DNA of 64,000 nucleotides from Mobula birostris (Eukaryota): contig NC_092370.1 in the NCBI RefSeq assembly GCF_030028105.1, positions 182,786,647 to 182,850,646 of the forward strand. The letters are read 5' to 3'. Made by a program: the position numbers and the translations under genes. This document shows, piece by piece, positions 22,405-36,910 of this stretch (position 1 is the stretch's first letter; each line of letters opens with the position of its first letter). Under the pieces are notes generated by a model, which saw only the letters and a program-made list of their open reading frames with translations, was not told the DNA's origin and ran no database searches.

Positions 22405-22980
22405 ACGAAAACACGAGGAAATCTGCAGATGCTGGAATTTCAAGTAACACACATAAAAATTGCTGGTGAGCGCAGCAGGCCAGGCAGCATCTCTAGGAAG
22501 AGGTACAGTTGACGTTTTGGGCGAAGACCCTTCATCAGGACTAACTGAAGGAAGAGCTAGTAAGAGATTTGAAAGTGGGAGGGGGTGGGGGTGATCCAAA
22601 ATGATAGGAGAAGACAGGAGGGGGAGGGATGGAGCCAAGAGCTGGACAGTTGATTGGCAAAAGGGATATGAGAGGATCATGGGACAGGAGGCCTAGGGAG
22701 AAAGAAAAGGGAGGGGTGAAGCCCAGAGGATGGGCAAGGAGTATAGTGAGAGGGACAAAGGGAGAAAAAGGAGAGAGAAAAAAAGAAAAAAAATATATAT
22801 ATAAAATAACGGATGGGATACCACACTCAGGTTGGAGGAACAGCACCTTATATTCTGTTTGGGTAGCCTCCAACCTGATGGCATGAACATTGACTTCTCT
22901 AACTTCCGTTAATGCCCCTCCTCCCCCTCGTACCCGATCTGTTATTTATTTTTTATATATATATTCTTTTTCTCTCTCTC
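22405..22980. mobile_element. Penelope-like insertion with inverted segments
   Basis: 22405-22820 is the reverse complement of the 3' UTR at 55270-55690; 22820-22980 is a forward copy of 55170-55330. Confidence 0.88.
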
Positions 22981-22984
22981 CTGT

Positions 22985-23440
22985 GGAGTGGTCTTACAGA
23001 AAAGCAGCATCCATTGTCAAGAACTACCATCAACTAGGCCTTGCTCTGTTCTCACAGGTGCCATCAGGATGGAGGTACAGGAGCCTTAGGCTGCACAGCA
23101 CCAGGTTCAGAAATAGTTATTACACTTCACCCATCAGGATCCCAAACCAGAGTAGATAACTTGACTCACGCCAACACTGAACTGATTCCATAACCTTTGG
23201 ATTCTCTTTCAAGGACTCTACAACTCATTACAACTATTATTAGTATTCTGTTTTTTCTTATTGTACTTGCACAGTCTGTCATCTTTTGTGCATTGGTTGT
23301 TTGCCCTTCATTACTGTGTAGAGTTTTTCATTGATTCCATTCAGCATTTTTTGTATTTACTGTGAATGCTCACAAGAAAATGAATCTCAGGGTAGTATAT
23401 GGTGATGTGTATGTACTTTGATAATAAATTTTCTTTGAAA
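22985..23440 (+). mobile_element. Rex1/Babar-type LINE 3' end
   Basis: Peptide RKAASIVK...PSGWRYRSLR..STRFRNSY followed by a 3' UTR ending aataaa. Confidence 0.72.
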
Positions 23441-26350
23441 ATTATTAGGAAGGAGGAGACTTCCTAGACCACATGGGTGGCCTGGTGAATTCTTCACATT
23501 CAGAGGGAGTTTCTCCATTTCATGTCAGTTTGCATCTCATGGCAAAAAGGACTCATTGTACTCACCTGCCTTCCTAGAAGACCACCACATTTGTTTATAA
23601 ATTTTCCTTAGGTCTTCCTGGCAACTACTTTAGTTAAAGTAAGCAATGTCACTCAAAGGAATCTGCATTGCAACATTAAAACACAGATCCTTCATTTGCT
23701 TTACTTTAAGAACTCCCATACGGGAATCTTGACCAGAAAGTCCAATGCAGATTCCTTTGTTAACACTGGACTAGTCATTCTAAAATGGTTGCTGTGAACA
23801 TTTGTAAGCAATCTGGATGCCTTCTGTTACCCTTGTTTTGCTAACTCCCTCTGTGGTCCAGGGATATGAGAATTCCTGCAAAGTCTTGCCTGTTCCTGCT
23901 GCACTGTAATTGTAAAAGGCTCTAGAAACCTCTTAACATTAAGCTGTGGTTGGATGTATGTGAGCCAAAGTCCTGACATAGATGCTGTCTGGAGCACACC
24001 CAGTGTTGGACCGCTGTAGGAGCTACAGTCTCCAGCCCAGAATCCTTCACCTTCTGAAATGAGATGGGAACTAATCATCACTCCTCTAAAAATCAAAATG
24101 CACAAAAGAAAATTAAAAATGGATTCATGTTAACCTACAATGATTTTTAATTTTGAGCAATTCTGCTGTTAGATCATACTCCTCTCACCTTGATGTCTCG
24201 GTGCACTGTAACTATTCACTCATTTCTTTTTTGTTGTTTAAAGGGAAATGCAGTTCCAAAGTTTCATTAATACAGTTAAAGTTACATGAATCAAATCAGG
24301 GTTATAATAAGACTATCTCATTATCTGCTTAGCTTCTACACTGAACACAGCACGTAGATCATTACAGCACAGTTCAGGCTCTTTAGCCCACAATGTTTCA
24401 CCAGTCTATTAATCTATTCTCAGATCAATCTCACCCTTCCCTCCTACATAGCCCTATATTTTTCTCTAACCACAATAATTACATTTTCAAGGCAGTTTTC
24501 ATCCATTGAAGTCCAAAAGCAATAGTGCAAAGCATATAAAATATTAAGGCTACATGTGGTATTGGCATACCAACTTTTTGACTTAAATACCTAAAATCTA
24601 AATAACACCCTAAACTATTAAACTGAGCTATTAACAAACTGATACCAGTGCAGCCGTTTCATGTTATTAAATGGATCATGGTATCATCAGATATTGAATT
24701 CTCCACAGTCAGTCCAGTGCCAAACACTTAAGGACACAGGATTAGATTAAAGAGGGAACTGACTGACTATTACCAGACAAAATCAAGTCTCCCTGGTACA
24801 ACAATCACATATTGGAAACTAGGGACGAGTATTAATTTTACTGCAAGCAGCAAACAGGGATTAACTACTTGTTTCTGACTTTGCTTTATTTACTGCCCAG
24901 ACATAAAGGTGAAATTTCACCCACATATACAATATGGGTGGCAGAAAGAGATTGTTTTCTACTTTTTTTGATAGATACAGTCACAGTAGTAGACAGAGGT
25001 CCCAGTGCGGACAAGCATGCCAGTTTTAGCATCTTTGACATGGCATCCAACAGGGTGATAAGGAGCTTGTTTGAAATTAATTGCTGCTGCATGGTTTCCT
25101 GTGGTTCTGGAAACACAGCAGTGAAATATGGGCATGAGCAACTGATACCATAAGTGGTCCCTCATATGCCAGGGAGCAAGAGGATACCCCTGGTGACCTG
25201 TCAAGGAAGCCTTCGCTCTGCTCCAGGCCAGACCTCCATTGCCCAACTAACCTGCAGTGGTCCTCTGGAGCTCCTAGCCATGACTTCCCTTCCTCCCGCT
25301 CTCTGGGTTAGCTACTTACTACTGAACCAGGCAGCTCTGGATGTCAGAAAGGACTGCACCATTCAGCTGGGCCAAATTCTTTGGCAATCTCACTTCCTGT
25401 AATAAACTAGGACAATATATCACAAACCAAATATTACTTCTTGACTAACCTTCTCAAAAAAAGAAAAAGACCAGATTTTTTTAAAAAAAGCATGTGAAGC
25501 TTAGATAGAGGAAACCAGAAAATTATCTGGGTGATGAGGGATTGGCAATGAAGTGGTATTAAGGGAAGGAAGGAAGAGGCCAGGTGAAACTTCATTATCC
25601 TGACAACGACTGCAACATGTTCACCAAGATGGTGGAATTATCCAAATATGGGTAGGAAAGAGAAAAATAAAGTGCTTGATGGAAGGAACATAGGGCAGGG
25701 AGATTAATGTTAGATTGAGTCACAAGAATAAGCAGAAGGCTTGTTGGTGTGGATAGTTTCCTCTTTGTGCTTTTAAAGGCATAAGAGTTAGTCATGGGGA
25801 ACTATCATACCCTTAAGAAAAACTCACAGAGCTCTGCAGATTCAATTCTTGATCCAATCTCTCACCTCAAGCTCCAATTTTTCTTTAAAGTGGGTTTTAG
25901 TTCAGAAGTTGCAGCCTTCCGTTTGCACATAGATTTGATCTTACACATACAGAAAGAATGAATGCTCCAGTAGTCATATTGCTTTTACTTCCTACTTTTT
26001 TCAATTTAATCCTTTTCTTGTTGTATTATGTGCTGCACTCACAAAACATCAACGCGGTAAATGTTCAACCATAACAGGTGTAGACCTCTCACTTCGGGTG
26101 CATTCTGGGCACAAATTAAACTCAAAATTGTGCTTGTTCTCCAGATTTATTTTGTGGTTTTAGTTTCCATTCAAAAAATAAAATCATTTGAGATCTAGTG
26201 GAATTGGGCTTTATTGTATATATTTTGAAAATACTGTATTATTTGGTGTACCTAAAACTAATAGCATGGCACCATTTTATCAATACAATCTGATGACAAT
26301 TTAATCAAAACATCTGGTCTAACAATCATGGAAAAAGATTCTAAAATACA

Positions 26351-29300
26351 TCCTGTGGATGTGCTGGGACACATCATCAGTGATGTAACCTGGGGTCATC
26401 GGGTGTTTCCGGTCTTTCAACATCATGCACCCTCGCCCAGGTGATCCCGCCGGGGTTGATCAGACCCCAGCTTGTGTCCCAGCAGCATTGGCCCACGGGT
26501 CACCCCTCCTGATCCACAGCCATCTCGAGGCTCTCTCAGCGGCCTCTGTGATCGCTTTCCTCTTGCCAGCCCCAGTGATGCCAAGTAGGGTGTAGACTCT
26601 GCAGAGTGAGTGGCCGGCAAAACCCCTGCAACCCACTTCGATGGGCTTGCAGTGAACCTTCCAGCCTTGCCTCCAGCACTGCTCCACCAGCTCCTGGTAC
26701 TTGGCCCGCTTCCACTCATTTGCTTCCTCAATGCGGTCCTCCCAGGGAACTGCCATCTCAATGAGGACAACCTGCTTCGAGGACACTGAAGAAAGAACCA
26801 CATCTGGCCTCAGTGAAGTTGTTGCTGTTTGGTCGGGGTGCTTCAGCTGACTCCCCGGGTCAAATTGAAGCAGCCAATCTGCTGCAGTGTTAAGCAGGCC
26901 CGATGATGATGCTGGTCCGGGCTGACGTAGGGGCTGTGCTCCGGCTCTGACAAAGGAGATGTTCTTCCTCTGACCACTCTGTTTGCTGGTGGTCATGGCC
27001 ATCGCAATGCTCTCTGACACTGACTTCAGCACCTGGTCATGATGCCACTGGTAGCCACCTTCCCCCAAGGCTTTAAAGCAGCTGCTAAGGATGTGCTCCA
27101 GTGATCCTCTTCCTGGACAGAGAGGACACGCTGGTGTATCGCTCTTGCCCTAGACATGGAGGTTTGCAGGGTTTGGTAAGACATCATAGACAGCCTGGAT
27201 CATAAATTTAATGCACTGGGGTTCTGCCTGCCAGATGTCAGACCAGGAGATTTTCCGCTCCAGCGCACCTTCCCACCTTGTCCATGCTCCCTGTTGCCTC
27301 ATGCCCACCATCCTGCTATTCCTTTCCTCTCCAATGCCAGCCCGCACTTCCTCCAGGACTAGTTGCTGTCTGTCCTTGCCTTTGGCCTTGTCATAGAGAG
27401 GTTGTGAAACGGAGCCCAGCTCCACTCGCCTAGTTGACACTGTCCCCACCACAGCCCTGTGACTCAGCCGGGACTCTGTTACCACCAGCCCTTCCTGAGC
27501 CTTCCACTTCCCGTCCGTCCGTACCTGGATGCCTGCTGCTGCCACTTTAGGGCCCTTGGAATCCCTGTACTGCAGCACCTCTCTTATGCGGGAAACCCTG
27601 AATTCCTCGTCCAGGCTGCTGAAGGGAAGTGGCAGCTCATTGCACCTTTCGTACAGTGCTGTGCTGTTCAGACTACGAGCTAGGCCCAGCCATCTTCGAA
27701 GGTAGTTACTGACCTTCCTTTCCACAGTTGTCACAGGCACCTCGTATATCAGTAGCAGTCATAGGATTGGGGGTAGGATGCCACGCTGGTAAATCCAGGC
27801 TTTGAACCTTCCAGGTAGACCTGATTTGTCCACCGTGGTGAGCCAGCTCTACAGGCTACAGTCGAAGACCTTCCCCAAGCTCTTGACTGGCTTCTCGGTG
27901 ATAGATGGAATTGTAGTGCCATCCGAGGTAAAACAAAACTTGTCCACCACTTTGCCCTTCTTCAACACCATGGACCTGGATTTAGCTGGTTTGAAGCTCA
28001 TCTTTGCCCATGCGATGAGCTTTTCCAGGCCCTGGAGGATCCACCTGTTGCCAGGAACTGATGTTGTCGTGACATTGAGGTCATCCATAAAGGCTCTGAT
28101 CGGGGACTGCCGAACACCAGACTTGGTCAGTGGGCCTCTACACTCTGCCTCAGCTGCCTTGACTATCATATTCATGGCAAGGGCAAAGAGAATTACGGAG
28201 ATTGTACACCCAGTTATAATCCCCTTCTCCCGCCTCTGCCAGCCTGATGTCATAGCTTCAGAAGTGATTCCATGTCTGAAGTTCCAGTAGTAGTTCATGA
28301 TGAGGTCCTTGATATTTCTGGGAACATAATGTTGGTCTAGTGTAATCTCCACCAGTTTGTGGGGTATTGACCCATACAAATGTAGCCAAAGCACGACCAG
28401 GTCCCCCTTCCCCATCTGTGCCTCCCTGATCAGCTGGGTGACTACTCCAGTGTGTTCCAGGCACCCAGGCACTCCGGGAATTCCACCCTACTGCACTGAA
28501 GTGTCGATACTGTATAAGTTCTTGAGGAGAAAGTCTGCCATCTGGCGGGACTAGACACTAAAGAAGATTTTCCCTTCCACACTAAGCAGCGAGATGGATC
28601 TACACTGCTCCAGTCAGACGAATTTTTCTCCTTGGAAATCTAACTCCCTCTGCGTACCTCCACTGGTCTGCCCCTGTCCCCCTGTGCCAGATCACTCACA
28701 GGATCTTCCAAAGAATCTTGAGAAGCTCCGGGCAGTGCTTGTACACCTTGTAGGGTACTCCACTGGGTCCTGGCACAGAACTGGCTCTGGCTGAAGTCAC
28801 AACTTCCTTCCAGGTGGGCTCCCTCACATCGAACTCCACCATGGGGAGTGGTTGACTTGTAAGGGCTCTGTGGAGGCCCAGCTCTTGCTCCCTTGCAGGG
28901 TCACTCAGGGTGTTATGAAGGAAATGGTCTACCTCTTCTTTAGGGCACACAAGGCGGCCACTGCATTTCTACCCTAGGAGCTGTTTTGTAAAACCAAATG
29001 GATTGGCTATGAAGGCAGCTCGCTTCCTGGCTCTTTCTCTCCCTTGCCTCCTGTGCCATTCTGCTCTGCACAGGGTCATTAGCTCCTTCCTGCAGATGTT
29101 CTGGAGCTCAACCAGGGCAGGCTTCTCCTCCTCCATTGCTACCGTGAACTGCCGTGCCAGGGACCGGAGCACTTGGCGCAGTTGGTGGATCTGGGCTGCC
29201 CTGCGGTTCATCGTGTATTGGGATCTGGTGGTCTTTCCCTCTTCTATCCCAAATCTCTCTGTAGCAGAGCTGACAATGATGATGATCATTGTCTGAAGCT

Positions 29301-29893
29301 GTCCGTCAACATCTCCCTTGGCTGTCAACTCTATGATCCTTGCTACATCCCCATCAAACTGGAGCCACTCTTTCTTGTTGCTGACTGGGGGCCACTTGAT
29401 CCGGTGCTGTTGAACTACGTTGCTTGGGACAGAAGCTTCTGACGCTTGGAGGTTCTGGGCTCTGTGGGGCGACTCCAGGCCGCGCTCCTCCTGTGTCTCA
29501 CCAGGCGTAAATCCTGCGCGCTGCGAACATTCTCCTGCTCCAAGCACTTCATTCTGGCCTGATGGATCTTTAGGCTGCGCTTGTTCTTACAAACCGTGCC
29601 GCAAATGCATCTCCTGTCATCGATAATCCATTTGCCTTGGTCGTTGTTATTAGGTCTGTCCTATTGGGGTGCTCATTTTGCCCCCCCCCCCAGGCTCCCC
29701 TGGGGGTGGCTTTCATTGGGTATATCTATAGCTTTCTTGGGTTCTTCTTCAGAGAAGATGCAGGTTGGTCTGCTCCCCCTCCCTGCCACGTTTGCTGTCT
29801 TTCCGAGCTGTCAACTGTCTCTCCAGTCATCACCAATCTATTCGGTGGTCACCCAGCCTTTTCCTGAGAGTCACTGGCTTAGCCAGTTTGTGT
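26351..29893 (-). mobile_element. HERO-type non-LTR retrotransposon (R2-group, RLE endonuclease), full length, decayed
   Basis: N-terminal zinc finger CICGTVCKNKRSLKIHQARMKC (~29545-29610); RT motifs YGSIPH, GIITGCTISVILF, AFMDD; CCHC CPLCPGRGSLEHILSSC; RLE motifs WHHDQVL, RPDVVL, IEMAVPWE, KRAKY. 14-bp TSD with one mismatch: GATTCTAAAATACA (26337-26350) / GATTCTAAGATACA (29894-29907). Several stops and frameshifts. Confidence 0.9.
26368..26442 (-). ncRNA. Rearranged (non-circularly permuted) hammerhead-like motif in the HERO 3' UTR
   Basis: Minus strand GGGUG-CA-UGAUGU...GACCG-GAAA-CACCC...ACAUCA-CUGAUGA-UGUGUC: both core motifs are present with perfect helix I and helix III complementarity, but in non-standard order. 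The cleavage triplet reads GCA in this copy. Confidence 0.55.
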
Positions 29894-30859
29894 GATTCTA
29901 AGATACAACCTATTTAAACTTCACTATGCTGTAAGTAGTTTCCACAGAGGACAGTTTTTTTTCATAAAGTTTTTATTGAAATTTTTAAAAAGACATCAAA
30001 GATGCTCTTGCGCAAACAATTTGAAAGGTTTGCTGGGAAGTTTGTAAAAAAAGTACAATTAAAGGAAACTCAGAATTTGTTATAATTTTCCGTACTGTTG
30101 TTGGTGCTGCTTTCCAGTGCAATTTTTTAAAATTAGGACAGAATTCGCACTTGAAATTCTGCTCTTTAGGCACTTTGAGTGAGTTGAACCAGTCTCATTC
30201 GGTTGCCATATTGGTATTCCTGACATGAATTTGACATCTGTAGGCCAAAGTGTACTAGATTGCTGAGCATATTCTCTGGACATCAGCAACTCAGGGCATC
30301 AATCAATACTGCCATGGTGGAGATCAATATGCACCCTAATTCCTCATTCTAGCTTTGCACGGTTTGACAAGTATTTGAAAATTGCTATTTAAAGAAATCA
30401 TCAGCACTCACAATTTAGTTTTTGATTGTTTTCATCTGCCTGTTGTACCAAATCCACAAGATATTGGCCATTACTAAATTTGTTTTGAATCTACTGAAAA
30501 TTTTTGAGACAGAACAAGATTCATTATTTTTCCACAAGCTTTTTTAATGTATGCTTCATCCAAGTACACGACTGTATTGTTTAGCTTTTTGGGATCAGAA
30601 GGGGTGTATTTTTGTTAATTGATACATTGTCAAGCATAATTCCTCTAAAGGGCAAGCCGCGCCACAGGTTATTAGAAAAACTCAGAGGTAGAACAAAAGA
30701 AAACAAAATAATATCTGAGAATTCAGATATGTTGCCTGGGATGACATCATCTTTAACTGAAGTCATTGTCATGCAAAAGGTACCATCAGCATAATGGCAG
30801 ATCAATGCTGAGACCAATGTTTCCCACACAACAGGTGCTCATGTACTCAAAAGTAACCG

Positions 30860-31020
30860 TCCAACACAGCACTGAGGGAGCACTGCAAGTTGGAGACACT
30901 GTCTCCTGGTTGAGAGTTAAACTGAGATCTTATCTTCCCTCTCTAGTTCATACAGATACTTCTGGAGTAGCATTCGAAGAAAAAGTTTCTCTCAATATGC
31001 TAGCTAACACTTTGGCCATG
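30860..31020 (+). mobile_element. DeuSINE (SacSINE1/AmnSINE1-like) Deu-domain remnant
   Basis: cagcactgagggagcactgcaagttggagacactgtctcctggttgagagttaaactgag resembles the Deu core as I recall it. Confidence 0.65.
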
Positions 31021-31534
31021 TGAAAGGCTACACTATGACCCACCCTTGCCCTCAGCTCAAGGCCTTTACATTTCTGGTAAAATAGATCTCTGCTCCATCA
31101 CCTTGTCAGTAACTTAGGTCATCTGTGGTACATCCATAACACATTGGCATACCATTTCCATGAACCTGCAGGCTCAACATGTCTCCCTTGGTAGAAAATG
31201 TCTTTTAAGCTACTTCCTTACTTGCCCCTAACACCCACCACACACACACAAAACTGGCTAACTGTATTTAACATATTACGTTATCAGGTTCCATACAAGT
31301 GCAAGGTATACGACAGCTGTTATTTTACTCCCTTCCATCAACAGGCCCTCAAAATGTCGTGTTGATGAAATTGTGATGTACTTCTACTTCCTTCATATTT
31401 GTTTATGTACCCATAGCTAGAAGTAGCATCTCATTACACTGGGGGTGGTGGGGGGGATGCAGCAGGTGGCAAATACAGATCAACTACCAATCCTGGGTAA
31501 GTTACAAAGACAATCAGGAACTTGTAGGCACTTC

Positions 31535-31720
31535 ACACACAAAATGTTGGAGGAACTCAGCAGGTCAGGCAGCATCTATAGAAGAAAATGAACAACTGAT
31601 GTTTGGGTTGAGACCTTGCCTGAGTCCTGATGAAGGTGCTTGGCCCAAATCATCAACTGTCCATTTCTCTACGCAACTGTTGCCTGACCTGCAGAGTTCT
31701 TCTAGTATTTTGTGAGTTAC
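31535..31720. repeat. Inverted repeat of two Penelope 3' termini
   Basis: caaaatgttggaggaactcagcaggtcaggcagca ... tgttgcctgacctgcagagttcttctagtattttg, with a degenerate CTGATGA hammerhead core at the centre. Confidence 0.75.
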
Positions 31721-33005
31721 TCACTTACCTAATTACCGTCCATTACACGCTGGTGTTTGGGGCAAAGGTCCTGCATCTCTGACAATATTCAGAGCTTTCT
31801 TCATTATGTCAATAGCTTCCTCTCAATTTTCACTATTGTCGGTCAAGCAAGTGTCAGGTGAAGATTCAGGAATACTGTCACACTCAGATGTACAAGTATT
31901 CTTCATTTCTGTTTCCATAACAATTTTGTTTTACCAGTTAAGGCTATCAGCCCTGAGCTGAACTCCTGAACATGGAGGGCCAATAGTCCACTCTTAGCCT
32001 GGCCTCTACCCTTTGGCCTGTTTGGCATGGAAAACCCTACCAAGAGCCAAAGCCTTGTAAGTGTTGCACACCTACTGGGGCCCACCCAGGGATGCCAATT
32101 ATGTCACAAAAATCACCGCTGGTAATCATGATCTGAGAGGCACAGAGAGAAGATGTATTTACTGACAAGTAACCTTTATTGTCTCAACTAAAAAGCATGT
32201 GGGTTCACAAACTAACCACCTGTGTGCACACACATTAGAATTCCCTGATCCTCCATGGACAGTCAATGCAGAGAAAAGGTATTACCCGTGAAAGGAGTCT
32301 ACGCTGGCCAGGCATTCCTCGTGGTCTTGATCTCCATGTGCCTGTGGGGTCCTCCTCAACCATGATGGCTGGTCTCTGATTGCTGGAGAATTATTGCCAT
32401 CACATGTTTGGAGATTCTGATCCTTATAGTGTTCCTCATCAGTTGAACTGGTAGATCTCCAGCCCACTGGCTCAAGGTCTCCTGACCTACCTGGGTCACT
32501 TTCTTAGTGGTTCTAGTCCAGGGCTACAACCAATGTTTCATGGCTCTGCCCGCCCCCCACACACACCTTGTGTATTTGTGTCTTTCAACTCTGAGTGGTC
32601 CAAACCATTAAACTAGGGACCCAGACACTGATGCGATTGCAGATTTCTTCCTTGGTAGGTCTGGCACTTTACATAATAAATAGCTACTCATTTGAAAATG
32701 GTCTCAGGTTTAGCAGGTCATTATCTGAAACTCCTTGGATTCTCATTCAATTGCTCTGATTAGAGTAACCCAGAACAACAATTTGGGGGGACAAAGACAA
32801 TTGATTTGTTTACTCCCCCTGACTTTGATTCATCTGAATCTACTCATTTGTAGACTGTAGTTCTTCTTGTCAGCTTCCACTGCCCTTGATTCATTCGAAT
32901 TCACTAATTTGTAGACTGCAGTTCCTTCTGACCAACAGCTCTGACTCCAGCTCTCCAGTTCATTGAGGCATGCAACCCTTCAAACCATGACATGGTTGTG
33001 GAGGA
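31720..33005 (-). mobile_element. Non-autonomous RTE-like retroposon, interrupted by an LTR-like insert
   Basis: (TAAG)-like tail at the left end, RTE-like 5' UTR, and approximate TSD attttgtg at ~31707 and ~33006. Confidence 0.5.
32056..32937 (-). mobile_element. Putative ERV-type solo LTR (~880 bp)
   Basis: TG...CA ends, tandem ~45-bp repeats near the minus-strand 5' end (32820-32925), minus-strand AATAAA at ~32175-32180. Splits the surrounding element; TSD imperfect. Confidence 0.55.
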
Positions 33006-33142
33006 TTTTGTGTGTGCTGATCCAGATTGCCAGTATCTGCAGTCTCTCGTGTCTCTGACTTGCAGGCACTAGTTGGAATATTGTCACCTACAATATTCCA
33101 CTGTAGCCCAATGAAAACAAGGAACATTAGACTTCAACTATT

Positions 33143-33945
33143 TTCAATAGGTTCAATAGGTACACTTAATGTCAGAGAAATGTATACAATATACATCCTG
33201 AAATTCTTTTTCTTCATAAGCATCCACAAAAACAGAGGAGTGTCCCAAAAAATGAATGACAATTAAATGTTAGGACCCCCAAGCACCCCCCCATCTCCCC
33301 CCTCCCACACATAAGCAGCATCAAAGCGACGACCCCCCCTCCTCCACCAGCAAAAAAGCATCTGCACCCCTCACGGAGCACTCAAGCGCGCAGCAAAGCA
33401 TCAATGAACACACAGATTTGCAGTACCCCAAAGACTACTCACTCACCCAATAATTCAACATACAGGCTCTCTCTCTCCCTACTAAAGGAGAAAGAGGTTC
33501 CTCCATTTCACATGGAGAGGGGGGACGTAACAAAACAACTTGTTGTTTTATGGTGTTAAAAGTCTGTTGAGCCACTTTTTCTGAGCCCTGTGCCCAAAGA
33601 TCTCGAGTCTCTCAGCACAGCCAGCAGCCAGCTCACTGCTTTCGATCTTCCGTGCACTCCCACGTCATATCAGGCGGTGGCACCAGCTTCGAATCAGCCA
33701 ATCTCCAGAGCCACGAAACCCGGCACCCTGAAGGTGCACTAGTCTTCCAGGTTGCCTCCTTGACATATCGAAAAGTCGCCAGCCGCGAGGCCTGAGAGTG
33801 GTCCCATTTCTGCAAAGAGCCAAAGTCAGCCTGTAACTCCAGGTCAGGGTCTTTAAGAGAACCCTGAAAAGGAAAAAAAGGAGATGTTAAAGATAGAAAT
33901 AGAGCTGCTTCCGAAGATGCAAGCAAAGGAGTTGCCGTTAGGTGG
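33143..33945 (-). mobile_element. Non-autonomous non-LTR retroposon (GC-rich head, LINE-like tail)
   Basis: (TTCAATAGG)x2 tail, 3' UTR resembling the Rex1-type tails elsewhere in the window, CpG-rich 5' part, no RT. Confidence 0.55.
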
Positions 33946-35465
33946 CAAAATAGTTGAAGTAAATGCAGCTTTTCATCCCTTAGTGCCAATCTGATAAACA
34001 AAGAGATTACTTTCATGTACTGACCTCATATCACTTGATTCCTTAATATTCAAAAATCTATCACACTTATGAAACCTGCTAAACTACCACATGGAGAAAA
34101 GCAGTGTTTGCTGGCTGCGTCAAATAAAAACAACCACTGTTAAAAAAAATGCACAATCTGAAAATGTTGAAACGTAGCAGACAGTTACACCATTGTAAAT
34201 AGAAAAGACAAGTCAACATGCCAGGTGACCCATTAGTCAGAGGAACAGCTAAAAGCCGTAGAGAATTACATTTCCTGGTGAATTGTGAGATCACTAACGT
34301 AAGTTGGCGTTCAAGTGGCAGAGAGATGAAAGCAATCCTCTATTCGCACCCTTCACATATAATGTATGATGTACCTACATATACAGCCCTCACTGAAATC
34401 CTCCATGCAAAATTGGGAAGCACCTGAGTTTTCCTGTTTGATTTATTCGTTTTCAGCATCATTGTCTTCTCGTGACCGCTCTAGCCAAAATCACCAAATA
34501 AGCACCAAGTCCAAGGACGATTGTTTGCTGTAGATTCATGTTCGCCAGGAACTGAAGTGAGCTTCCTAAGTTATTTCAATTAGTCCCCTTGACAGCTGTC
34601 AGGAGGAAGAAACTATCATCTCTTCTGTCTGAACTGAAAGCAAGCCCAGGTCTCAGAGGTGAAATGACAGTGATCAAACAGACTGCTACCCAACTGCAAT
34701 TCCCTTAACTGTGCCATACATCTGGAACCTGAACTTAAGTATATATCAAATAAACCAACAGTAAGTCTGGCTGTGCAAGTGTTCTATTATTTGCTTCCAT
34801 CATTCTCTTCTCCTTGCTGCATTGCAGTGAGAGAGATTCTTTTTCTCAGTTCAACCAGAACATTTCTCAATGGTCACATTTGATCCTTTGTGATCTCGTA
34901 CCAGCCTCTACCCCTCCACCACCCCATCGTCTCCTTCTATTGTCCCTTTGGGCACAATCCTCAGTTTGTACTGAATGCTGGAATTCATTTCTCAAGAATT
35001 ACAGTTCACTGGTAAGGAAATGAAATATGATAATAGCTGTAATTCTTTGCACAGGGAACAGTTATGTTCCCCCAACCAGCTACAGAGACATGGAAAACAA
35101 TCACCAAAAATGAGGAATGATGTTAAGCATTGCCAAATGTCCACTGTCACTGAAGCATGTGACTGGGACCTGGCACAGGCTTGTGAACAGGAAGTCTGTC
35201 TTAAATTAGCATTACATCAGGCGACACGGAGACAGAAGTGAAAGAAAGTGTTGAATATAGAACTAATGGTGTTATATTTGAAGGCACACAGTATATGAAA
35301 TAAGATAGATGGTCTTGTAGAGCAGTTAGAAATTTTCAGGTATGATGTTGTGGGCTGAGTCAAGTCAAATGTCAAGTGAAGTTTATTGTCATTTAACTAC
35401 ATATATGTATATAATATACATAGAAATGAGACGTTTCTTTGAACCAGGGTGTAAAGCACATAACC

Positions 35466-36910
35466 ATAGTCATAGCCATAGTCATACTTTATTGATCCCG
35501 GGGAAAATTGGTTTTCGTTACAGTTGCACCATAAATAATAAGTAGTAATAAAACTATAAATAATTAAATAGTAATATGTAAATTATGCCAGGAAATAAGT
35601 CCAGGACCAGCCTATTGGCTCAGGGTGTCTGGCCCTCCAAGGGAGGAGTTGTAAAGTTTGATGGCCACAGGCAGGAATGACTTCCTATGACGCTCTGTGT
35701 TGCATCTCGGTGGAATGAGTCTCTGGCTGAATGTACTCCTGTGCCCACCCAGTACATTATGTAGTGGATGGGAGATATTGACCAAGATGGCATGCAACTT
35801 GGACAGCATCCTCTTTTCAGACACCACCGTCAGAGAGTCCAGTTCCATCCCCACAACATCACTGGCCTTACGAATGAGTTTGTTGATTCTGTTGGTGTCT
35901 GCTACCCTCAGCCTGCTGCCCCAGCACACAACAGCAAACATGATAGCACTGGCCACCACAGACTCGTAGAACATCCTCAGCATTGTCCGGCAGATGTTAA
36001 AGGACCTCAGTCTCCTCAGGAAATTGAGATGGCTCTAACCCTTCTTGTAGACAGCCTCAGTGTTCTTTGACCAGTCTAGTTTATTGTCAATTCGTATCCC
36101 CAGGTATTTGTAATCCTCCACCATCTCCACACTGACCCCCTGGATGGAAACAGGGGTCACCGGTACCTTAGCTCTCCTCAGGTCTACCACCAGCTACTTA
36201 GTCTTTTTCACATTAAGCTGCAGATAATTCTGCTCACACCATGTGACAAAGTTTCCTACTGTAGCCCTGTACTCAGCCTCATCTCCCTTGCTGATGCATC
36301 CAACTATGGCAGAGTCATCAGAAAACTTCTGAAGATGACAAGACTCTGTGCAGTAGTTGAAGTTCAAGGTGTAAATGGTGAAGATAAAGGGAGACAAGAC
36401 AGTCCCCTGTGGAGCCCCAGTGCTGCTGATCACTCTGTCGGACACACAGTGTTGCAAGCACACGTACTGTGGTCTGCCAGTCAGGTAATCAAGAATCCAT
36501 GACACCAGGAAAGCATCTACCTGCAGCGCTGTCAGCTTCTCCCCCAGCAGAGCAGGGCGGATGGTGTTGAACGCACTGGAGAAGTCAAAAAACATGACCC
36601 TCACAGTGCTCGCTGGCTTGTCCAGGTGGGCGTAGACACGGTTCAGCAGGTAGACGATGGCATCCTCAACTCCTAGTCGGGGCTGGTAGGCAAACTGGAG
36701 GGGATCTAAGTGTGGCCTGACTACAGGCCGGAGCAGCTCCAGAACAAGTCTCTCCAGGGTCCTCATGATGTGGGAGGTCAATGCCACCAGTCTGTAGTCA
36801 TTGAGGCCGCTGGGGCGCGGCGTCTTCGGCACAGGGACGAGGCAGGACGTCTTCCACAGCGCAGGAACCCTCCAGAGCCTCAGGCTCAGGTTGAATACAT
36901 GGCGAAACAC
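35466..36910 (-). mobile_element. Young 5'-truncated Rex1/Babar LINE (RT and C-terminus)
   Basis: ORF 36194-37096: YRLVALTS, DPLQFAYQ, FFDFSSAFNTI, GAPQGTVLSP, KFSDD. ORF 35612-35983 is the C-terminus. (CATAGT)-like tail. Confidence 0.92.

Follow-up and report, generated by a model that had tools for sequence, protein, structure and literature searches.

HERO-clade retrotransposons are widespread mobile elements of animals and carry near the element tail what comparison of their sequences identifies as a real and conserved hammerhead variant, new in its strand wiring and seen here in a dead copy. That copy lies in the window, i.e. the whole 64,000-nucleotide stretch of Mobula birostris DNA that was analysed. 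The deduced fold, which has the block order S-G-C and is opened between A9 and G10.1, is well supported; its cleavage is a prediction. A literature search, with thin coverage of subscription journals and with the supplementary alignments of Eckert et al. (PMC10085705) mostly outside it, found no hammerhead split at A9/G10.1, and, with the same thin coverage, no HERO ribozyme or circular intermediate.

The host of the motif is a non-LTR element with a restriction-like endonuclease (RLE), and has the following parts.

26337..29910, minus strand: decayed whole element (HERO-clade, RLE, non-LTR) that opens with a short repeat of its 3' end
26460..29660, minus strand: broken single ORF with N-terminal Cys/His finger, reverse transcriptase (RT), CCHC knuckle and PD-(D/E)xK-type endonuclease motif
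26462-26460, minus strand: ORF stop codon, inside the loop of hairpin h
29893..29910, minus strand: 5' terminal repeat, an 18-nt copy of the element's 3' end, 16/18 identical, directly abutting the 5' UTR

The single-ORF layout, with an RT followed by a C-terminal CCHC knuckle and restriction-like endonuclease, is present, the ORF being broken in this copy. One ORF piece gives an RVT_1 match (E 9.9e-10, within 27852-28487), and the knuckle and PD-(D/E)xK-type motif are visible in the translation of the last piece; the names finger, CCHC knuckle and PD-(D/E)xK follow what is established for RLE elements. There are 182 longer proteins that match the last piece at E <=1e-10, with fish and lancelets predominating among the 120 matches listed. 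Over most of the ORF, identity is 58-63% to Takifugu Q76IN2 and Tetraodon Q7T1J8, which we take to be HEROFr and Zebulon, both of the HERO clade; Zebulon is said to have been described earlier as a partial tandem. Placement in HERO is to be read with a tree that covers the C-terminal part only, is without outgroup clades (R2, R4, NeSL, CRE) and has a weak backbone. Taken alone, the 18-nt 5' repeat has an E of 0.34, and the same junction occurs in 27 of 30 loci, as discussed below; no target-site duplication was seen by eye at the ends of the window's copy. In the genome (4.0 Gb), one 21-letter anchor from the 3' UTR of this copy has at least 2952 copies. No relatives were found in the viral contigs searched, and the prokaryote genomes searched gave two short contigs (L096 and L097; 507 and 809 bases) without a 3' UTR, these HERO fragments in two marine bacterial assemblies being most likely animal DNA contamination. 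Elsewhere in the window, 35612-36034 (minus) gives a weak PF09004 match (E 0.0025); this region and 22887-23159 (plus) presumably resemble the C-termini of other LINEs.

The fold of the window copy, all on the minus strand, maps as follows.

26473..26483, minus strand: P0 5' strand, in the last codons of the ORF
26448..26472, minus strand: hairpin h, between P0 and G10.1
26443..26447, minus strand: stem II 5' strand, beginning with G10.1; GGGUC in the family, with G to A at 26445 in this copy
26436..26441, minus strand: interaction-helix 5' strand, corresponding to the stem I-II interaction helix in ribozymes of type SGC
26433..26435, minus strand: non-bulged strand (N-G-A) of a kink-turn-like element
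26426..26432, minus strand: stem III 5' strand and cleavage triplet; GCA here (U16.1 to C at 26427), GUA or GUC in the family
between 26426 and 26425, minus strand: predicted cut
26419..26425, minus strand: stem I strand on the 3' side of the predicted cut
26401..26414, minus strand: stem II 3' strand, GAAA and stem III 3' strand; C11.1 to G at 26410
26389..26400, minus strand: kink-turn-like 3-nt bulge and GA, then interaction-helix 3' strand
26374..26386, minus strand: stem I 3' strand and CUGAUGA core
26363..26373, minus strand: P0 3' strand, directly after A9
26337..26362, minus strand: terminal hairpin and tail-less 3' end

An earlier note on this DNA had pieced together, in the 3' UTR of a HERO element, a hammerhead of non-circularly permuted order from three minus-strand blocks, GGGUG-CA-UGAUGU (26432-26420), GACCG-GAAA-CACCC (26414-26401) and ACAUCA-CUGAUGA-UGUGUC (26386-26368), within an enclosing CCUGGG/CCCAGG helix (26441-26436 and 26394-26389). 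All of these are present, in the order S-G-C and 18-92 bases past the ORF stop on the minus strand, and the cleavage site of this copy does read GCA instead of GUH. The interval proposed for the motif contains the core, the full motif being larger (26483-26363). The suspicion that the copy is dead also holds up: besides U16.1 to C (26427) there is a second core lesion, which that note overlooked, C11.1 to G at 26410, and because of these two changes and the stem II mismatch at 26445 the copy is predicted to be inactive as a ribozyme.

An Rfam scan of 24000-34000 returned no hammerhead at E up to 10, and two chance matches. The folding z-score is -0.65 for the originally proposed interval alone and -4.59 with P0 included, P0 also forming in the minimum-energy fold of the window copy. 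Relatives gave -5.85 (L049), -1.94 (L032), -0.03 (L042) and -0.70 (L047), from a program without pseudoknots and with P0 clipped in the L032 and L042 regions. The loop of hairpin h (window 26454-26463, minus) often reads (C/U)UGAUC(A), also in the unrelated families of L039, L047 and L059, and these letters could possibly reflect a protein or tertiary contact. Coupling of folding to translation termination was considered and rejected as a general feature; the stop is in hairpin h here, and lies upstream of or far from the motif elsewhere.

Conservation was assessed on 65 metagenome-contig loci from a protein-based search, chosen blind to the RNA motif, of which the 43 extending at least 100 bases beyond the ORF end formed the test set, the other 22 being left out. 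A strict S-G-C descriptor matched in 19 of the 43, at 31-63% protein identity, two of the matches having U at position 3; in dinucleotide shuffles the core appeared in 1/8600 and the full fold in none. On both strands of the 64 kb window the strict descriptor gave 0 matches, the decayed copy included. With a relaxed rule allowing two lesions the motif was found in 31/43 loci, compared with 0/43 opposite strands and 0/40 ORF-internal segments, and was absent in the remaining 12/43. The motif-less loci include L066, L079 and L084 (31-42% identity), which may mark a limit of distribution or decay. A family with UUGAAGA, i.e. U at core position 3, has all of its stems intact (L043:2200-2295 and L044:2150-2245), its motif sitting 100-380 bases beyond the ORF end. 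In the most divergent carrier (L068:2830-2945, 33% protein identity) the core and stems are intact and the interaction helix is extended.

The wiring of stem II is the unusual feature of the deduced fold. In 18 of the 19 strict matches the partner of the strand before GAAA lies upstream, begins with G and forms 4-6 pairs. The strand after CUGANGA, which forms 0-1 strict pairs with the strand before GAAA, pairs instead with a farther-upstream strand to give P0, with at least 10 pairs in 9/18 loci, some of the shorter automatic picks being wrong by eye. Hairpin h occupies the gap from P0 to G10.1, without any unpaired linker in L032, L042 and L068. In a 21-row MAFFT alignment made from sequence only, 91.7% of 448 cells are paired in stems I to III and in the enclosing helix, a count that covers these four helices, with P0 and h outside it, and for which the structure was derived from the same sequences on which pairing was counted. 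Cells changed on both sides number 87, compared with a shuffled mean of 24.1 (0/500 shuffles), and slid controls are 33-47% paired. By helix, 96.9, 96.2 and 91.1% of cells are paired in stems I, II and III, with 4, 4 and 3 pairs changed on both sides, and 84.4% in the interaction helix, with 4 such pairs. Helix I, helix III and the enclosing helix of the earlier note are thus real, and all covary across diverged HERO elements.

Among 11 representatives, stems I, II and III have 44, 44 and 42 of 44 pairs, as against 49-61% across families, a count biased in that anchors were chosen to maximise pairing. The G10.1-C11.1 pair is kept in all 11; position 7 of CUGANGA varies (U, A, C) and the remaining core letters are constant. 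On sequence grounds a free position 7 with a kept G10.1-C11.1 is the pattern that hammerhead chemistry predicts. The link from stem III to the interaction helix appears kink-turn-like, with GA on one side and a 3-base bulge followed by GA on the other, in 15 of the 19 strict matches, a raw count without a null in which many of the matches are related; the pattern is missing in L068 and likewise in L054.

The nearest described class is type SGC of Eckert et al. 2023 (PMC10085705), who treat the hammerhead as three blocks and assume that CUGANGA and its flanking paired bases are inseparable. Their cleaving construct SGC-1 has CUGAUGA and one U, next the stem II 5' strand, and then one base and the interaction helix (PMC10085705). 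As in type SGC (HRIMA-1 and variants; also types CSG and GCS), the HERO motif has the blocks in reversed cyclic order with two pseudoknots, has stems I and II joined by a short linker, and has a single base between the stem II 5' strand and the interaction helix that comes after it (PMC10085705). Unlike type SGC, HERO has block C split, with P0 after A9 and G10.1 upstream, where SGC-1 has one extra U, and it alone shows the kink-turn-like link from stem III to the interaction helix, set against type SGC (PMC10085705). Thus, block order S, G, C and the I-II outer helix are those of type SGC, the uninterrupted block C of that type is lacking, and so is the direct or one-base joining of A9 to G10.1 that characterises hammerheads in general. 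Since the second half of SGC-1 is, in effect, moved to the front, with P0 and h replacing the extra U, the HERO motif is best read, from the strand order, as belonging to the SGC class with the strand open at a further, fourth place, between A9 and G10.1. The suggestion in the earlier note that the class might already be known is right, type SGC being described (PMC10085705); the HERO motif, with its stem II strand upstream, is not plain type SGC. Eckert et al. report finding none in genomes; their descriptor requires CUGAUGA(U)G to be followed at once by at least 2 more pairs of stem II and would miss the HERO fold, which is consistent with their result (PMC10085705). Insertions in the hammerhead core often impair cleavage; the part of Perreault 2011 (PMC3088659) available lists short core insertions only.

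The cleavage triplet was compared in 30 fetched loci (of 40 scored, the window's own included), reading GUA in 26, GUC in 2 and GCA in 2, with the base preceding GAAA mostly C in those 30 HERO loci. NUH is kept in 57/60 own-genome copies sampled by chromosomal order, the 60 being drawn from the first 64 listed, less L129 (a 1-nt site deletion), two presumed duplicates and one close neighbour. The family consensus, proposed earlier as a check, thus favours a hammerhead, both in its triplet and in its covarying helices; within a family, site identity reflects descent, not selection.

The hammerhead site does not mark the 3' end of the element, as had been proposed. Real 3' ends are tail-less and fall about 90 nt downstream of it, with a stagger that takes them several bases into junction sequence (at successive bases 43/45, 37/43, 27/37, 12/27 and 2/12 continue), and one copy (L003/L224) extends about 30 nt into the 5' UTR. 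Only 1/4 matches to a stop-after-site pattern truly stops there. There is no pile-up of 5' ends at the site either: the predicted cut is cleanly crossed in 2952 anchor matches, and, of 30 examined among 32 pattern matches for the 13 positions up to the site, 9 are by reading true 5' truncations, with 2 at the site itself, and the others are subfamily variants or internal deletions. With an estimated pattern sensitivity of 0.44, roughly 0.2% of the 2952 copies would start at the site. A lone truncation-pattern match taken for a truncation at the site was rejected as really a 1-nt insertion there; insertions number 1 at the site, versus 0 and 0 at control positions, numbers too small to use.

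Of the 30 loci fetched together with their 5' UTR, out of 40 scored from 98 candidates, 27 have an upstream repeat of the 3' end. When copies that share flanks are counted once, 19 repeat events remain, of which L126 and L127 may be a single one; 15 start upstream of the cut, 1 at the cut and 3 after it. The shortest repeat has 18 nt; both repeats are visible in 12 of 20 longer stretches, where they measure 57-449 bases, and the longest, an upstream one, reaches about 1.2 kb. In the metagenome loci L032, L042, L044 and L049 the 3' end runs, by eye, into the HERO 5' region. An R2-like role, in which the cut makes the RNA 5' end, was rejected, as 15/19 5' repeats begin upstream of the cut. Repeat identity within 10 insertions is mixed, and confounded by subfamily and age. 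Rare variants are shared by the 5' repeat and 3' end in L242 and L224; four polymorphic sites are discordant between the repeats of L240, those of L238 and L239 are discordant by eye, and in L223 all 21 comparison copies are closer than the insertion's own 3' end.

As judged from these copies, the template is continuous both across the cut site and across the junction of 3' end and 5' UTR. A mechanism that would accommodate this begins with the strand order seen in the sequence, i.e. P0a, hairpin h, the stem II strand with G10.1, the interaction strand, stem III with NUH, stem I, then stem II, GAAA and stem III, the interaction helix, stem I with CUGANGA, and P0b. By stacking, P0 and h would make up the other arm of a four-way junction and bring A9 to G10.1, and the kink-turn would bend stem III onto the interaction helix. 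In a transcript that spans both 5' repeat and 3' UTR there would be two cuts, and ligation would then give a circle; the RT/RLE protein would nick the target, prime internally at the junction of 3' end and 5' UTR, and copy past its own start, which would restore the 5' repeat and the ribozyme in it. A circle made by cutting and re-ligation, internally primed and copied past its start, would account for both continuities and for the kept catalytic bases. Intact family members are probably active and, given activity, a circle is the somewhat likelier outcome. That the conserved S-G-C fold, opened at A9/G10.1, cuts itself and that its RNA is rejoined as a circular RT template has, taken together, close to an even chance. 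The full proposal, an active HERO hammerhead of new topology (reversed, and split at a four-way junction) with autonomous transposition via ribozyme-made circular RNA and internal, target-primed, more-than-unit reverse transcription, is tentative, with a little less than an even chance.

Clean crossing of the site is equally expected from an uncleaved template. It may be that the ribozyme is active while transposition uses uncleaved read-through RNA from tandem masters, internally primed, with slow or protein-gated cleavage serving to regulate, release or destroy RNA, an account that we consider less likely. It explains the clean crossing and the lack of end pile-ups, and yields most of the observations of the circle model. 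The discordant repeats of L240, and by eye of L238 and L239, fit an origin from two different genomic UTR copies, whereas a monomer circle predicts repeats identical at birth and the observed identity is mixed. Against it, a partial-tandem parent should be unable to lengthen its 5' repeat, leaving only shrinkage unless full tandem masters persist, and repeats reach 1.2 kb; nor does it explain the retention of the core and of the four helices in elements with 31-63% protein identity. R2-type RTs jump templates, and the RT could pass from the 5' end to the 3' end of a cleaved, linear, unit-length RNA, over the cut and without ligation. The few copies that begin exactly at the site (L125/L237, L135, L143/L241) or bear 1-2 nt indels there (L128, L129, L131) are as this would have it. 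Jumping is nonetheless improbable, since it should give many 90-nt copies starting at the site, which are rare (2/9 truncations), and frequent untemplated bases, of which there is 1 insertion match, and 0 among 60 sampled copies. For uncleaved RNA there is also an in vitro precedent in the Penelope element PAc, which used unprocessed RNA (PMC11167929).

Two other readings concern the fold itself. A non-catalytic, hammerhead-shaped structure might bind the RT/RLE protein and position priming, in keeping with a split core that lacks a tested precedent, a fold at a fixed distance from the 3' end, and genomic copies that show no need for a cut. The conserved positions, however, are exactly the catalytic ones (CUGANGA with its free N, GAAA, U16.1-A15.1, H17 and G10.1-C11.1), and the stems vary freely, so that this reading is no more probable than template jumping. 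Very improbable indeed is the version of the earlier note, a contiguous type-SGC hammerhead with stem II following CUGANGA and a cut defining the 3' end. It had the S-G-C order right, and in fish-type copies the downstream strand does make 4/5 pairs, with one mismatch. Its helix II, GAC with the downstream GUC, has 0-1 strict pairs, counted from G10.1-C11.1, in 19/19 descriptor matches, several families lack a G there, and the downstream strand is held in P0; the 3' ends some 90 nt from the site contradict an end-defining cut. The contiguous register is paired in 66.7% of cells, above shuffles (0/500), versus 96.2% for the upstream strand, and among the representatives in 24/44 pairs (437/20000 permutations). 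A second, contiguous stem II register may thus occur in some families, as in fish-type copies, and the contiguous version as proposed is, from these alignments, largely refuted.

The preferred reading, a self-cleaving fold and a circular template, has parallels among known elements. Like HERO, Penelope-like elements have a ribozyme in the terminal repeats of a partial tandem, internal priming and a proposed circle model (PMC4209133, PMC11167929), the last dating from 2014 (PMC4209133); their hammerheads are minimal or canonical and their endonuclease is of the GIY-YIG kind (PMC4209133, PMC11167929), whereas HERO, a true non-LTR element, has a rearranged ribozyme and an endonuclease of the restriction-like kind. 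In PAc, insertion in vitro was unaffected by ribozyme mutants, and RNA that had not been processed served as the main substrate (PMC11167929). The two flanking hammerheads of retrozymes excise a unit RNA, as proposed here for HERO, and its circularisation has been shown; retrozymes differ in being non-autonomous LTR-type plant elements with canonical hammerheads (PMC4918200). R2 is likewise an RLE-type non-LTR element with a self-cleaving RNA (PMC13580325, PMC7650587), of the HDV-like class (PMC4209133). The R2 ribozyme makes the RNA 5' end (PMC13580325, PMC7650587), by contrast with the HERO site, which lies within the 3' UTR and is crossed by the copies.

If the HERO fold is what it appears to be, it would count as a naturally occurring hammerhead beyond the six permutations allowed by Eckert et al. 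(PMC10085705), and as a non-circularly permuted one present in animal genomes in thousands of copies. It would offer one possible mechanism for the partial-tandem, tail-less build of HERO elements, and would allow the Penelope circular-template model of 2014 to be tested in an R2-like, autonomous element. With termini that leave it between A9 and G10.1, the ribozyme would also give RNA engineering a new insertion point.

Within the M. birostris genome, segmental duplication has multiplied HERO copies with their flanks on G000:C6 at 185.7-188.0 Mb (L099-L102, L105, L106), and further flank-sharing duplicates lie on C24 at 38.3-39.1 Mb (L115-L118) and C1 at 8.07-8.21 Mb (L170-L174). The copies L163-L222 fall into at least 4 subfamilies with differing 3' termini and a ribozyme core common to all, the largest HERO subfamily in this genome being a different one from that of the window copy.
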